A DNA stretch of 64,000 nucleotides from a virus (Duplodnaviria; Heunggongvirae; Uroviricota; Caudoviricetes): IMG/VR virus record IMGVR_UViG_3300028048_000043. One strand, 5' to 3'. Positions within the stretch are counted from its first letter, which is position 1; the number at the start of each line of letters is the position of its first letter. The position numbers and the translations under genes were made by a program. Shown in pieces: positions 5,951 through 10,660 of this stretch. The notes below the pieces were generated by a model, which had not been told where the DNA came from, did no database searches, and saw only the letters and a program-made list of their open reading frames with translations.

Positions 5951-6430
5951 ATGATTAGATATATTCCAGAAGACACAACAGTTGTACTCGCTGAGGTACC
6001 TGATGAAATCTCTTTAGCTATAAATTTGTCAAATTGTCCACACCGATGTCCAGGATGTCATTCTCCTTATCTTCAGGAAAATAAAGGTGATGAACTAACG
6101 TTTGATGTAGCAAAAAAGCTCATAGACAAAAATTGCGGAATCACGTGTGTAGTTTTTATGGGCGGAGATTCTACACCGGCACAGTTGGTTAAACTTGTAT
6201 ATGACTTGAGGCAAGTTTATCCTGAATTGAAGTTTGCGGTATACTCTGGAAACCCAATCGCACGACCAGATTATATCGCGATGTTTGACTATATAAAACT
6301 CGGTGAGTATAAAGCAGATCTTGGTGGACTTGACTCTGAGACAACAAATCAAAAATTTTTCAAGAAGATCATGAAGGATGGGAGACCTTTCCTTGAAAAT
6401 CAAACATATAAATTTAAGAAGAAATGGTAA
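5951..6430 (+). CDS. nrdG: anaerobic ribonucleotide reductase activase (radical SAM)
   Basis: CPHRCPGC gives the CxxxCxxC motif; FMGGD; YIKLGEY; adjacent to nrdD. Confidence 0.92.
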   Translation: MIRYIPEDTTVVLAEVPDEISLAINLSNCPHRCPGCHSPYLQENKGDELTFDVAKKLIDKNCGITCVVFMGGDSTPAQLVKLVYDLRQVYPELKFAVYSGNPIARPDYIAMFDYIKLGEYKADLGGLDSETTNQKFFKKIMKDGRPFLENQTYKFKKKW

Positions 6431-6744
6431 ATTGCGGAAGTTGGAGTGACGTGCTCTACGAATTGAACAAAACGCCTGGTGGTCGTACAGTTCTAAAAAT
6501 ATCTACGTCTTGGTGTGGACCTTGCCGGACGCTTCAAAAAATACTCGAAGGTATAGAAGGAACAGTTGATAATGTTAAATTCATATGTGTCGACGCGGAT
6601 GAAGTTGATGATGAATTTATTCTTGAGAAATTTAACGTTAGGGGGGTTCCTGTCTTAATAGTCCTTGATGAGAACGGAGAGACTATAAGTCAAACGGTTG
6701 GTTTGCAGACAAAAGAACAAATTCTTGAAAGACTGAAACCATAA
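6424..6744 (+). CDS. trx: thioredoxin
   Basis: WCGPC active site, cis-Pro motif GVPVL, 106 aa. Confidence 0.9.
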   Translation: MVNCGSWSDVLYELNKTPGGRTVLKISTSWCGPCRTLQKILEGIEGTVDNVKFICVDADEVDDEFILEKFNVRGVPVLIVLDENGETISQTVGLQTKEQILERLKP

Positions 6745-6745
6745 A

Positions 6746-6857
6746 TGTCCAGATAATCGTTAATGATTTCTATGTTTGGGCAATTATCTGGACAAAGTAT
6801 CTCGAAAAAATTTACAGAATTACATATCTAGACAATTTTCTAGACAAATGTCTAGAT
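6746..6857. repeat. cluster of TCT(A/G)GACA direct and inverted repeats upstream of nrdD
   Basis: tgtccagataat (6746-6757) and attatctggaca (6783-6794) form a perfect 12-bp inverted repeat. Further copies: atctagaca 6826-6834, tctagaca 6839-6846, tgtctagat 6849-6857. Confidence 0.75.
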
Positions 6858-6903
6858 GGGCACATATTAACAAAATTAAAATAAAAATCAAGACAAATAT
6901 AAT

Positions 6904-9900
6904 ATGAACGTTAGAAAAAGTGACGGAAGCATTGAAGAATACAGCGCCGAAAAGGTTAAGAAAGGAATACGTGAAGCATTTGAAGCGGTTGGTGAAGTTT
7001 GCGATGACGCTGTTCTTTCTTTAATAGAAGGAAACCTTTATAATTATGAGAATATATCATCTTCAGAGATTGAGAGACAGGTTTCTGAATCTTTAATGTC
7101 AATAAACAAAAAAGCAGCTCGAAAATATCTAGATAAAGCGAGCGAGAATAAAGTATTAAAGAAAAATGATGATTTCGTAAGAAATTATATCGCCGCTTCA
7201 AATGCGGCAACAGGATCTAAATATGACTCAAACGCAAACGTATCAAACAAAAATATTGTTACGCTTGGACAGGAGCTGCACAAAGGCGAGAATATTCAAC
7301 AGAATAGATATATTATGCAAAACAAGATCAAGCAACTCTATTCCAAAAAACTTGCTGATCAGTATATCTATGATTTGGAACACCATATCATATATAGACA
7401 TGATGAGTCCGGAACACCAGGATATCCATACTGTGTTGCTATTACAATGTACCCGTTCTTAACCGATGGATTAACGAAACTCGGTGGATTATCTATTGCA
7501 CCGACAGACTTGAAGAGTTATTGTGGCGAGTTTATTAATCTTGTTTACTCTGTTTCTTCACAATTTATGGGTGCAGTTGCGACACCAGAGTTCCTTCTAT
7601 ATATGGATTACTTCATAAGAAAGGATTACGGTGAAGACTATCTCAATCATCTAGATGATGTAGTTGAAAACAATAGAAAACACAGAACTCTTGAACAGGT
7701 TATCGAGAATTCGTTTCAGCAAGTTGTTCATTCCATGAATATGCCAGCCGGAAATAGGGGGTATCAGACTGTTTTCTGGAATGTTAGTTATTTTGACAGA
7801 CCTTACTTTGAAGGTGTGTTCGGAGATTTTGTGTTTCCTGACGGAACAAAGCCAAAATGGGAAACGTTATCATGGTTGCAGAAAAAGTTTATGAATTGGT
7901 TCTGTAGTGAAAGAGACAAGTATGCTGTTATGACATTCCCTGTTGAAACGTTAGCTATGCTTACGGACGGCGGTGATGGTTTTGTAGATCAAGAATATGC
8001 TGACTTCGCGGCAGAAATGTGGTCAAAAGGACATAGTTTCTTTTGTTATTTGTCAGATAGTCCGGATAGTCTTAGCAGTTGTTGCTTCAGTAAAAACCAA
8101 AAAGTTTTATGGAAATCATCAACAAGTGGCGTTAATTTAACAACTTTAGAAGAACTACATAATTTAAACTGGGAACCATATAAGAAAAATCTTAGAATTT
8201 TCCACAATGGTAGCTGGGTAAGTGGAAAATCAATAAAATTACCAAACAGAAAGATGTATAAAGTTGTTACTGAAAACAACAAAGAAATATACATGACCGA
8301 TAATCATATTAATGTTACAATTGATGGTGAAAAACAGACATCAGAATTAACAGTAAATGATTATTTAATGTTTAATACAATGGCATTAAATGCAGTACCA
8401 GAAAATGATGAACATTTAACATATGAACAAGGTTTTGCTGTTGGTGCTTTTCTTGGTGACGGGTCTTTTGGCAGAAGATTTGACGATGGAGTTATATATG
8501 ATGTAAATTTCTCACAAAACAAAAACAAATATGAGAAATGTATGTCAATGATAGATGCTGCTAACAGTCAATTAGGAGGCGAAACTGTTTCTTGCTTGAG
8601 TTCTGTTTATAACAATGTATATCCAGTTAGAATTTGTTCAAAAAAATTAGTGGCATTTATACAAAGATGGACAAATTGGAAAGAAGGAACATTGTATTAT
8701 AATAAAGAATTGAACCTTGATTGTTTGTTACAGTCTATTGAATTTAGAAAAGGCATTCTTGATGGGTGGTATAATACAGATGGTGGAAATTCTAACAGGT
8801 GCTACACAACAAGTCAAAAACTTGCAGAATGTATGGAGGCTTTAATAACCTCTCTTGGTATGCAATCAATAATTGACATTTCTGATAGAACAGACGAAAA
8901 AGTTGTTATAAGGGGTAAAGAGTATAATAGAAATTATCCATTATATTGTGTTAGATGGTATGAGCAAGCAAATCATAGGACAAACAAAGATACTGAACGT
9001 TCATGGGCAAAGAAAAATAATTCAATTTATTTCAAGATAAAATCAATAGAAGAAGTTGAATATTTAGATGATGTTTATTGTATTGAATGTAAGAACGAAA
9101 AAGAGCCTTACTTCACTCTTCCTTGCGGTCTAATTACTCATAATTGCCGTTTGCGCAACGCCTTAAAAGATAATGCAGAAGACGATCTTAATCATACAAC
9201 GCATCAGTTTTCTATGGGAACCGCGTCCGTTGCTACTGGTTCAAAGTGCGTTATGACAATAGATCTTAATCGTGCGGTTCAGGATGCGACCAGAAAATAT
9301 TTCAAAGATGTAGTTGGAACAGAACTCAACCCAGGAGAAAAACTTCATAATGTTTCAGAAAAAGAAAGAGAGGGAATATATCTTTATATCTGCGATTATA
9401 TCAATGAGCTTACGGAGAGAGTTCATAAATATCTGACATCATTCAATGCAATCATAAAGGATTTCTTTAATGCTAATATGTTGACTGTGTATTCGGCAGG
9501 GTTCATTGATATGAGGAAGCAGTATTTGACTGTCGGCGTGAACGGATTGACGGACGCCGCCGAGTTCATGGGCATTGAAATAACACCAAATGATGAATAT
9601 GAGAAGTTCTCAGGGATGATTCTCGAAACAATAAACAAGTGTAATAAGAGAGACCGCACCAGAGATTGTATGTTTAACACTGAATTCATCCCAGGTGAAA
9701 ACGTTTCATACAAGCATTATGAATGGGACAAGAAAGACGGGTATTATGTTTCTCCAAAACACAATATGTATAGTTCATATTTCTATAATCCTGAGGATCC
9801 AAATATAAGTATATTAGATAAGTTTGTTCTTCATGGAAGAAGATTCTCTTCTATGTGTGATGGAGGAATGGCACTTCATGCAAATCAGAAAGAAATTGGA

Positions 9901-10152
9901 ACAAAAGAGCAATATATGAAACTTCTTAAATTTGCAGCGAAGAACGGCACAAGCTATTTTACATTTAATGTGATGGGAACGGTTTGTGAAGAGGACGGTT
10001 GCGGATTTATAAGCAAACATACTTTTGATCATTGTCCAAAATGCGGAAGTAAAAATATCAGTCACACTACAAGGATCATTGGGTATCTTAAAAAGATCAG
10101 GGATTTTAGTGAGCCAAGACAAGAAGAAGCAGCAAAAAGAGTGTATAACTAA
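6904..10152 (+). CDS. nrdD: class III (anaerobic) ribonucleotide reductase with intein
   Basis: N-terminal ATP-cone-like start, PYCVA, SLSSC|CRL finger loop (interrupted by an intein), C-terminal CxxxxC...CPKC zinc site and TRIIGYL glycyl-radical motif. Confidence 0.95.
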   Translation: MNVRKSDGSIEEYSAEKVKKGIREAFEAVGEVCDDAVLSLIEGNLYNYENISSSEIERQVSESLMSINKKAARKYLDKASENKVLKKNDDFVRNYIAASNAATGSKYDSNANVSNKNIVTLGQELHKGENIQQNRYIMQNKIKQLYSKKLADQYIYDLEHHIIYRHDESGTPGYPYCVAITMYPFLTDGLTKLGGLSIAPTDLKSYCGEFINLVYSVSSQFMGAVATPEFLLYMDYFIRKDYGEDYLNHLDDVVENNRKHRTLEQVIENSFQQVVHSMNMPAGNRGYQTVFWNVSYFDRPYFEGVFGDFVFPDGTKPKWETLSWLQKKFMNWFCSERDKYAVMTFPVETLAMLTDGGDGFVDQEYADFAAEMWSKGHSFFCYLSDSPDSLSSCCFSKNQKVLWKSSTSGVNLTTLEELHNLNWEPYKKNLRIFHNGSWVSGKSIKLPNRKMYKVVTENNKEIYMTDNHINVTIDGEKQTSELTVNDYLMFNTMALNAVPENDEHLTYEQGFAVGAFLGDGSFGRRFDDGVIYDVNFSQNKNKYEKCMSMIDAANSQLGGETVSCLSSVYNNVYPVRICSKKLVAFIQRWTNWKEGTLYYNKELNLDCLLQSIEFRKGILDGWYNTDGGNSNRCYTTSQKLAECMEALITSLGMQSIIDISDRTDEKVVIRGKEYNRNYPLYCVRWYEQANHRTNKDTERSWAKKNNSIYFKIKSIEEVEYLDDVYCIECKNEKEPYFTLPCGLITHNCRLRNALKDNAEDDLNHTTHQFSMGTASVATGSKCVMTIDLNRAVQDATRKYFKDVVGTELNPGEKLHNVSEKEREGIYLYICDYINELTERVHKYLTSFNAIIKDFFNANMLTVYSAGFIDMRKQYLTVGVNGLTDAAEFMGIEITPNDEYEKFSGMILETINKCNKRDRTRDCMFNTEFIPGENVSYKHYEWDKKDGYYVSPKHNMYSSYFYNPEDPNISILDKFVLHGRRFSSMCDGGMALHANQKEIGTKEQYMKLLKFAAKNGTSYFTFNVMGTVCEEDGCGFISKHTFDHCPKCGSKNISHTTRIIGYLKKIRDFSEPRQEEAAKRVYN
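8083..9144 (+). mobile_element. intein with LAGLIDADG homing endonuclease in nrdD (354 aa)
   Basis: Starts CFSKNQKV, block B MTDNH, two LAGLIDADG-like helices (GAFLGDGSF, GWYNTDGG), ends LITHN followed by Cys+1. Removal restores SLSSCCRL. Confidence 0.95.
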
Positions 10153-10153
10153 T

Positions 10154-10372
10154 ATGACATTTCAAATCTATAGAAAACCAGGATGGATATTAAATCCGAA
10201 CGATAAAGTTGTAAACGGTATTATCAATGGGCTGAATAGATGTGACGGTCACTGTCCGTGCCACAACAAATATGCTGGAACAGATGACGACATTTGTCCA
10301 TGTAAAGCATACAGGGAAGAAGATTGTTGCTGTTGCGGATTGTACGTTTATCCTAAAAAACAAGAATCTTAA
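10154..10372 (+). CDS. ferredoxin:thioredoxin reductase catalytic (beta) subunit-like protein (72 aa)
   Basis: ATG 1 nt after the nrdD stop. MTFQIYRKPGWILNPNDKVV...GHCPC...ICPC...CCCCGLYV reproduces the CPC/CPC/CxC-GL pattern of FTR catalytic chains. Confidence 0.8.
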   Translation: MTFQIYRKPGWILNPNDKVVNGIINGLNRCDGHCPCHNKYAGTDDDICPCKAYREEDCCCCGLYVYPKKQES

Positions 10373-10387
10373 TTTTAGAAAATTCCG

Positions 10388-10397
10388 TATATTTGCA
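10388..10397 (+). promoter_or_regulatory. Bacteroidota-type -7 promoter element
   Basis: ccgTATATTTGCaaaa upstream of the ORF at 10418. Confidence 0.7.
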
Positions 10398-10417
10398 AAA
10401 ATGTACGGAATTTTTAT

Positions 10418-10660
10418 ATGAGTGAGATTAACAAAGAAAAATCGCCTGGACTACCCTTGGACGTGATGGTTGGAATTTATCAGAAAACGCTCGCGTATTC
10501 TCTTGAAAGCGTTAAGGTAAATCCTGACGGAACGACAACACATTTACACTCCAATGAATTTTTGGATAAACATCCAGAAAGACGCGATTCGCCTGAATTC
10601 ACAGAAGACGAAGAAAAAGAACAGGTGAAATTTATTGCAGCCGCAGCAAAAATATTTTAA
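10418..10660 (+). CDS. hypothetical protein (80 aa)
   Basis: ORF directly downstream of a promoter box, with phage-like codon usage. Confidence 0.65.
   Translation: MSEINKEKSPGLPLDVMVGIYQKTLAYSLESVKVNPDGTTTHLHSNEFLDKHPERRDSPEFTEDEEKEQVKFIAAAAKIF

Follow-up and report, generated by a model that had tools for sequence, protein, structure and literature searches.

A 64,000-nucleotide stretch of viral DNA (IMG/VR record IMGVR_UViG_3300028048_000043, Caudoviricetes), hereafter the window, carries four tightly linked, co-directional genes on the plus strand. They encode, in order, NrdG, the activase of a class III ribonucleotide reductase (RNR); a thioredoxin (Trx); NrdD, the class III RNR itself, interrupted by an intein; and a cysteine-rich protein of 72 amino acids (aa) related to the catalytic chain (FTRc) of ferredoxin:thioredoxin reductase (FTR) and to ferredoxin:disulfide reductase (FDR). 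The positions, read from the list of open reading frames (ORFs), are collected in Table 1. The genes lie as described in the initial annotation of this DNA, each with a Pfam match, and a single base separates the nrdD stop codon from the ATG of the 72-aa gene. NrdG matches Fer4_12 (E 6e-7, above the cut-off) and falls just under the cut-off for Radical_SAM (E 2e-6, 28.5 bits against 29.5); it is 42-50% identical to the nrdG products adjoining nrdD in related loci. The thioredoxin matches PF00085 (E 9.5e-13, 48.5 bits against a cut-off of 23.5), with its active site at aa 30-34. The reading that we favour, with clear reservations, is that of a phage operon for anaerobic synthesis of deoxynucleoside triphosphates (dNTPs), built around a thiol-dependent class III RNR and fed through thioredoxin and the 72-aa protein, here called the mini-FDR.

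Table 1. Features of the nrd locus, with positions in the 64,000-nucleotide window
Feature	Position	Strand	Description
nrdG	5951..6430	+	159 aa; class III RNR activase; radical-SAM motif Cx3Cx2C (CPHRCPGC)
thioredoxin	6424..6744	+	106 aa; WCGPC active site; 7-nt overlap with nrdG
nrdD	6904..10152	+	1082 aa; ATP-cone, NRDD and Intein_splicing matches (Pfam)
nrdD N-extein	6904..8082	+	aa 1-393; ATP-cone; βA Cys177 in PYC (aa 175-177); first finger-loop Cys393 (SLSSC)
intein	8083..9144	+	354 aa (aa 394-747); between the two finger-loop cysteines
nrdD C-extein	9145..10152	+	335 aa; Cys+1 of SCCR; Glu927 (FNTEF); Cys4 ribbon; glycyl-radical motif RIIGY (Gly1060)
mini-FDR, FTR/FDR family	10154..10372	+	72 aa; CPC-X11-CPC-X8-CCC; the six cluster and disulfide cysteines of FTRc all kept
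promoter-like motif TATATTTGCAAA	5885..5896	+	55 nt upstream of the nrdG ATG; contains TAnnTTTG
next TATATTTGCAAA copy	10388..10399	+	end of the four-gene unit and start of the next (80-aa ORF at 10418)
intergenic region before nrdD	6746..6856	.	five TCT(A/G)GACA octamers, three + and two -

The type of NrdD was judged by published class criteria (PMC4493059, PMC9669993, PMC9176816). The NrdDs of T4 and E. coli have an MGCR finger loop and use formate (PMC9669993, PMC4493059); NrdD2 enzymes carry a third Cys and a Glu (PMC4493059, PMC9669993); NrdD3 enzymes have QCCR/A and no Glu (PMC9669993); and clades with SCCR and Glu, and without Met, are "likely to solely utilize thioredoxin" (PMC9669993). 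In the window enzyme, removal of the intein leaves the finger loop SLSSC-CRLRN, that is, SCCR without the Met of the formate type, so that the adjacent cysteines and the upstream PYC noticed in the initial annotation are both present. When the protein was searched against all PDB sequences, only chains of the Thermotoga maritima NrdD were matched (E 3e-58), and T4 NrdD gave no match at E <= 0.001. In the alignment with T. maritima, PYC (Cys177) falls on PYCFAYT (Cys125), SSCC on ASCCRL and FNTEF on FNIEQ, which holds the Glu; at the C-terminus, CPKCG...RIIGYL falls on CPVCG...RIVGYL, covering the Cys ribbon and the glycyl-radical motif. The N-x-E with the active-site Glu is kept in all related phage NrdDs examined, and the loops of E. 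coli and of the T4-like phage KP27 read MGCR.

A small, quickly built NrdD tree (19 rows, excluding the Neisseria bacilliformis and T. maritima enzymes) places the window enzyme inside the SCCR group with a Shimodaira-Hasegawa-like approximate likelihood ratio (SH-aLRT) support of 99, together with other phage NrdDs, Vibrio phage Va1 and Clostridium phage c-st. The c-st enzyme was assigned to NrdDh1 by Aurelius et al. (PMC4493059). Outside this group lie E. coli and KP27 (MGCR), Methanomicrobiales (QCCA) and bacteria of the candidate phyla radiation (CPR; MCCR). By its signature, the window NrdD is classed as a thioredoxin-type NrdD2/NrdDh enzyme, in agreement with the thiol dependence first proposed for it. 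A formate-type assignment is rejected, as the loop is SCCR without Met rather than MGCR and the enzyme groups apart from the MGCR enzymes. NrdD3 is ruled out as well, since SCCR and Glu are present and the QCCA enzymes of Methanomicrobiales form a separate clade; the window enzyme thus differs in type from the NrdD3 of Methanosarcina, which the initial annotation had cited as a precedent.

The 72-aa protein passes the Pfam cut-off for PF02943 (FeThRed_B; 24.6 bits against 22, E 2.7e-5), with residues 4-70 on profile positions 11-91 of 106. Its motifs CPC (34-36), CPC (48-50) and CCC (59-61) place Cys34, Cys36, Cys48, Cys50, Cys59 and Cys61 on Cys55, Cys57, Cys74, Cys76, Cys85 and Cys87 of Synechocystis FTRc. 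Exactly six cysteines, spaced CPC-X11-CPC-X8-CxC, are invariant in an alignment of 22 members that are 51-77% identical. An AlphaFold2 model computed from that alignment has a mean confidence (pLDDT, predicted local distance difference test) of 89.5. The top 12 PDB matches of the model in Foldseek were all FTRc, the Methanosarcina acetivorans FDR (4TPU, which we take to be the FDR structure of the Methanosarcina RNR system) or a glutaredoxin-FDR fusion of Desulfotalea (7PWE), with probabilities of 0.96-1.0 and E 0.03-0.1; the next match had E ~9. Superposition of the model on FTRc by VIA-align gave Z 7.0 and a root-mean-square deviation of 2.8 over 70 of the 72 residues. The single sequence searched with phmmer against the PDB matches only FTRc, at E 4-6, and a family profile is needed: its best match is 4TPU (E 1.9e-6), ahead of FTRc, and 7PWE is matched too. 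The family comprises 920 clusters at 50% identity (E <= 0.001), nearly all of 55-130 aa. A Pfam scan of ten of the longest proteins among the top 150 of the 920 representatives showed an RNR or redoxin domain in none and a NUMOD4/HNH endonuclease joined to one, and a search for longer forms yielded a single N-extended gene call. Judged by profile and model, the protein is a member of the FTR/FDR family, as first supposed.

Two narrower identifications were set aside. A plant-type FTR is rejected, as the protein has no catalytic His, a shorter spacer and no variable subunit. No candidate for the FTR variable subunit was noticed in the operon, in which no aimed test was made; the 80-aa ORF downstream has no Pfam match and is not conserved in related loci. 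A Cys does stand in place of the FTR His, as the initial annotation had noticed (Cys60 aligns with His86 of Synechocystis FTRc), but the variant chemistry at which that annotation hinted for the CCC motif is rejected: since this position varies across the FDR-like clade (H, C, E, I, V, T, Y or A in the phage family, and Tyr in the CYC motif of the FDRs 4TPU and 7PWE), Cys60 is not a special variant.

The genomic context of the mini-FDR gene was drawn from IMG/VR and GTDB loci in two sets: 80 IMG/VR loci found via the small protein, and 80 loci with close NrdD relatives (64-83% identical, on jumbo-phage contigs of up to 412 kb). In the first set, nrdD or nrdG lies within a few kb in 13 of the 80, in the orders nrdD-[HNH]-mini-FDR-nrdG, nrdD-nrdG-mini-FDR and nrdD-nrdG-trx-mini-FDR; the genes that part nrdD from the mini-FDR gene are HNH homing endonucleases. 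In the second set, an FTR-like gene is found near nrdD at 27 loci, mostly in the slot between nrdD and nrdG, and a thioredoxin with an intact CxxC (WCxPC or WCxxC) stands in the nrd operon at 17. Both genes are present at five loci, and the FTR-like gene without a thioredoxin near nrdD at 22. These counts, with the several gene orders, support the linkage as more than chance. Among 23 long relatives with no FTR-like gene in the operon, one has it elsewhere in the record, and none of the 11 near-complete ones does; in this NrdD lineage the FTR-like gene is essentially an nrd-operon gene. The copies that adjoin nrd genes belong to the subtypes X11-C, X11-H and X13-E/I. The window copy is X11-CCC, and most relatives with a 76%-identical NrdD carry X13-CEC. 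This spread of subtypes suggests repeated recruitment, or at least long co-residence.

The closest NrdD relative, L145 (IMG/VR 3300021431_000095, 83% identical), has the same nrdG-trx-nrdD(intein) order. Its thioredoxin has SCGPC in place of WCGPC, and the FTR-like gene is absent within 4.9 kb downstream and from the rest of the 95-kb contig. The comparison suggests a very recent gain or loss of the mini-FDR.

The association also appears at the level of whole genomes. Of 50 long contigs that bear the FTR-like gene, 28 encode NrdD and 17 a class I/II-type RNR of family PF02867, with no overlap (45 of 50 together); among those at least 90% complete, the figure is 35 of 37. All 20 carrier NrdDs that were fetched, most of them from crAss-like contigs of ~100 kb, show YC, SCCR and the Glu, and the NrdDs adjacent to the gene do likewise. 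In the crAss-like carriers with an SCCR NrdD, the two genes are tens of kb apart. The formate-type MGCR loop was found in none of the carrier NrdDs checked. A thioredoxin (PF00085) is encoded in only 12 of the 50 records. In the window, tblastn with the NrdJ of Bacteroides phage crAss001 found no class I or II RNR.

Outside phages, at eight loci of CPR and DPANN genomes, a thioredoxin gene is followed directly by a distant FTR-like homolog (32-38% identical). Here the two genes may form a cellular thioredoxin-FDR pair. The Patescibacteria and DPANN genomes with the pair also carry an MCCR-type NrdD elsewhere.

In this giant phage of gut or rumen anaerobes, the operon probably allows DNA building blocks to be made at the expense of host ferredoxin. 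Splicing of NrdD must come first, as its two finger-loop cysteines are parted by the intein. NrdG would then put the glycyl radical on the spliced enzyme, and each turnover would oxidise a pair formed by Cys177 and one Cys of the SCCR loop. The WCGPC thioredoxin of the operon would re-reduce this pair and would in turn be re-reduced by the mini-FDR, in which a predicted [4Fe-4S] cluster on Cys34, Cys48, Cys50 and Cys59 would lie beside a redox-active Cys36-Cys61 disulfide. The electrons would come from a low-potential ferredoxin or flavodoxin of the host, and the route would depend neither on formate nor on thioredoxin reductase.

The same chain had been drawn in the initial annotation; its observations hold, and its interpretation is for the most part correct in the broad lines but mistaken on certain points. 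Thioredoxin, mini-FDR or both are absent from many close relatives, which makes the two genes optional add-ons, and it is more likely that they boost or insulate the supply of reductant than that they form an indispensable chain. With an optional module, thioredoxin in so few of the carriers and no ferredoxin seen in the window, the term self-contained, which was applied to the chain at first, is overstated. At least the low-potential donor, and in many cases the redoxin as well, must come from the host.

Several points weigh against the reading of a dedicated reductant chain. Neither a thioredoxin nor an FTR-like gene is found near nrdD in 41 of the 80 NrdD relatives, and the chain is therefore dispensable. 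A motif scan of the 64-kb window revealed no ferredoxin-like ORF, and no flavodoxin gene was seen there. The FTR-like contigs are not phylogenetically independent, and the only baseline for their RNR content is rough: any RNR is present in 128 of 685 phage genomes (PMC3653736), a sample that is neither size- nor lineage-matched. Thioredoxin adjacency alone is weak and not diagnostic, because nrdC of KP27 lies two genes from a formate-type (MGCR) nrdD. As for the small protein, the structural scores are middling in absolute terms (Foldseek E 0.03-0.1, VIA-align Z 7), although the modelled match is specific and full-length, and the cluster, activity and partner of the 55-130-aa family are predicted ones. 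The protein is ~40 residues shorter than FTRc and has neither the plant variable subunit nor the rubredoxin domain of 4TPU, so that its docking to ferredoxin is only putative. Finally, most crAss-like carriers hold the FTR-like gene far from the RNR, which would also fit a general redox role.

Such a role would make the mini-FDR an auxiliary gene that reduces the thioredoxin or glutaredoxin pool of the host, or other disulfides, with RNR as one of many beneficiaries and the adjacency to nrdD incidental. In crAss001, the gene (gp5) lies by itself in a tRNA array, well away from the RNR, in a genome without nrdD or thioredoxin, and Shkoporov et al. 2018 described an auxiliary metabolic gene with no connection to replication (PMC6235969). 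The distance to nrdD is ~85 kb in Lak phages, the methanogen homologs are likewise far from nrdD, and the X8 subtype (16 distinct variants) is never adjacent to nrd genes; the scarcity of carriers with a thioredoxin of their own points the same way. However, in the jumbo phages related by NrdD, 27 of the 28 copies found are within ~7 kb of nrdD, the nrd operon has received the gene in several orders and subtypes, and nearly all of the long carriers have a thiol-dependent RNR, with MGCR in no carrier NrdD checked. On balance we hold a general redox role to be rather unlikely, even if it is the strongest of the alternatives.

The mini-FDR might also reduce the NrdD cysteine pair directly, with no redoxin between them, while the thioredoxin of the operon serves something else. 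The relatives with an FTR-like gene and no thioredoxin near nrdD, and the majority of carriers with no PF00085 gene at all, would suit this arrangement, but a host thioredoxin could fill that gap. In addition, the characterised family members all act on redoxins, as far as the accounts consulted go (FTR on Trx, FDR on NrdH or Trx), a glutaredoxin and an FDR are naturally fused in 7PWE, and Trx adjoins the FTR-like genes of CPR and DPANN genomes. Direct reduction is in our view unlikely.

NrdG needs a low-potential electron donor for its cleavage of S-adenosylmethionine, which is flavodoxin in E. coli, and the small protein could be such a ferredoxin-like donor instead of a disulfide reductase; in many relatives its gene lies directly upstream of nrdG or overlaps it. 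Against this, the disulfide cysteines Cys36 and Cys61 are invariant in the family in addition to the four cluster ligands, the gene also occurs in carriers (crAss001, for example) whose RNR is of class I/II type and in which NrdD gave no match, and in the window it follows nrdD, not nrdG. A role as NrdG donor is very unlikely. Least credible of all is a non-redox metal-binding (e.g. zinc) protein or a decaying remnant with no part in ribonucleotide reduction, for although the protein is very short, its Foldseek E-values are marginal and its redox function is a prediction, the family holds 920 clusters with six invariant cysteines at FTR-like spacing, passes the Pfam cut-off, and is conserved and placed non-randomly.

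The closest counterpart of the thioredoxin and mini-FDR chain is the class III RNR system of Methanosarcina barkeri, which Wei et al. 2015 (Biochemistry 54:7019) reportedly described as NrdD3 with an NrdH-like redoxin and a ferredoxin:disulfide reductase. In both, as the phage chain is proposed, a class III RNR with adjacent cysteines receives its electrons from ferredoxin by way of an FTR-family [4Fe-4S] disulfide reductase and a small redoxin. The family profile of the phage protein is nearer to 4TPU than to the plant and cyanobacterial FTRc, and the third motif lacks the FTR His in both cases (CYC in 4TPU, CCC in the phage). In contrast, the phage NrdD has SCCR and Glu (NrdD2/NrdDh) where the methanogen enzyme has QCCA without Glu, and the tree parts them; the redoxin is a WCGPC thioredoxin instead of an NrdH-like protein; and the reductase has 72 aa and no rubredoxin domain, against 173 aa in the 4TPU chain. 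The phage system is virus-borne, and its FDR-like gene adjoins nrdD, whereas in the Methanomicrobiales genomes checked, which have FDR-like genes and QCCA (NrdD3) enzymes, the two are not adjacent. The locus can be described, with its function as predicted from sequence, as a phage-borne and widespread variant of the Methanosarcina FDR-redoxin-class III RNR system, in which an NrdD2/NrdDh enzyme is combined with a reductase of minimal size (72 aa).

With the NrdDs of N. bacilliformis and T. maritima (NrdD2 of Wei et al. 2014, NrdDh of RNRdb; Aurelius et al. 2015, PMC4493059), the window enzyme shares the βA Cys, the SCCR loop without Met and the active-site Glu. Unlike the phage enzyme, these were described with thioredoxin and NADPH-thioredoxin reductase or, for T. 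maritima, an unidentified protein reductant, and no FDR-type reductase was described beside them; the phage enzyme additionally has an ATP-cone and, within its finger loop, a LAGLIDADG intein. The plant and cyanobacterial FTRc (1DJ7, 2PVG, 7BZK) share the fold core with the mini-FDR, and all six cysteines of CPC...CPC...CHC align. They differ from it in having the catalytic His86, a first spacer of X16 instead of X11 and ~40 more residues, and the mini-FDR belongs to a non-photosynthetic phage context with no variable subunit gene seen.

Two phages offer further comparisons. In Clostridium phage c-st (NC_007581), CST074-CST077 encode a glutaredoxin, NrdG, NrdD with an intein, and then, directly after nrdD, an FTR-like protein. 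CST077 has 63 aa and is a homolog of the 72-aa protein (hhalign probability 96.7%, all six Cys aligned), the intein occupies the same SC|C site, and the NrdD lies in the SCCR group. Unlike the window, c-st has a glutaredoxin-like redoxin (CTAC) ahead of nrdG, the motifs CPC/CMC/CHC in CST077 and a Firmicute as host. The GenBank note on CST077, "weakly similar to Ferredoxin-thioredoxin reductase", is a precedent at the annotation level, as is the name given to gp5 of crAss001; for CST077 no functional interpretation was found. The crAss001 protein ("putative ferredoxin-thioredoxin reductase") is a member of the mini-FDR family too, 55% identical over 65 residues to the window protein, with CHC as its third motif. 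This phage too encodes a thiol-dependent RNR, gp69, annotated as a B12 class II enzyme, with a Cys-rich tail at its end. Our literature search found no paper that links a phage FTR-like gene to ribonucleotide reduction, and for viral FTR as an auxiliary metabolic gene it returned only crAss001 and a cyanophage paper.

A broader proposition, to which we would give an even chance, is that mini-FDRs of 55-130 residues are the smallest known ferredoxin-dependent [4Fe-4S] disulfide reductases and a portable module in crAss-like, Lak-like, jumbo rumen and clostridial phages. Through it, the low-potential ferredoxin of the host would be connected, via thioredoxin, to a class II or SCCR class III RNR, freeing phage DNA synthesis from host formate and NADPH-thioredoxin reductase. 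If this is true, many abundant gut and rumen phages, the cultured crAss001 among them, bring along a connection of their own between fermentative ferredoxin and dNTP synthesis, and a gene hitherto filed as an unrelated "auxiliary metabolic" curiosity would have its role explained. The Methanosarcina FDR-redoxin-RNR system would be extended to NrdD2/NrdDh enzymes and to viruses, and a physiological reductant route would be supplied for the SCCR-type class III RNRs of anaerobes. In addition, 72 residues would be a minimal scaffold for FTR-type [4Fe-4S]-disulfide chemistry without the catalytic His.

The insertion in nrdD has the features of an intein with a LAGLIDADG homing endonuclease, and its splicing is predicted. 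Its translation starts with CFSKN (Cys1) and ends with ITHN (HN), followed by Cys+1, and holds two LAGLIDADG-like motifs, GAFLGDGS and ILDGWYNTDGG; the Pfam Intein_splicing matches (E 4e-9 and 4e-10) are above the cut-off. Homologous inteins, 70-74% identical, occupy the same site at loci L035, L037, L040 and L086, and five of the 80 close NrdD relatives have one as well. Inteins at the SC|C site occur sporadically, at these four loci and at L145, L156, L214 and L219. In the nrdD of phage c-st (L252), this site is likewise interrupted (ALASC|CFDG), by a putative intein according to Dwivedi et al. The distribution resembles that of a mobile intein allele with the SCCR codons as its homing target in distant phages. 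HNH homing-endonuclease genes (HNH_3 / NUMOD4) stand between nrdD and the FTR-like gene in several relatives (L070, 9298-10020; L007, 8323-9306), and in one database protein (P0061) an FTR-like domain and a NUMOD4-HNH endonuclease are joined. Mobile elements have a hot spot in this slot of the nrd operon.

The operon gave no match by megablast against 50,697 phage records. Consecutive copies of the motif TATATTTGCAAA flank the four genes, which are read as one transcription unit. Six exact copies are present on the plus strand of the window (5885, 10388, 12282, 34188, 35155 and 52112), and with at most one mismatch there are 11 matches against 1.2 expected; the exact copies stand directly upstream of a gene start wherever inspected. 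The TAnnTTTG in the motif is the -7 box type of Bacteroidota. The motif is probably an early or middle phage promoter of this type and hints at a Bacteroidota host. In Prevotella copri, a member of one putative host clade, NrdD uses formate (PMC11226230).

Five of the seven TCT(A/G)GACA octamers in the window fall in the gap before nrdD, the sole long intergenic gap of the operon, and the cluster may be an operator, an attenuator or an RNA element. The 80-aa ORF that follows the operon (10418-10660) has a promoter-like motif of its own and no homolog in ~250 related loci. The window reads cleanly in translation table 11. The nrdD or nrdG frames of several FTR-like-bearing loci (L030, L035, L037, L066 and L015 from IMG/VR, and L002-L004 from Lak-B5) contain in-frame TAG, TGA or TAA under that table, which is consistent with stop-codon recoding in those phages.

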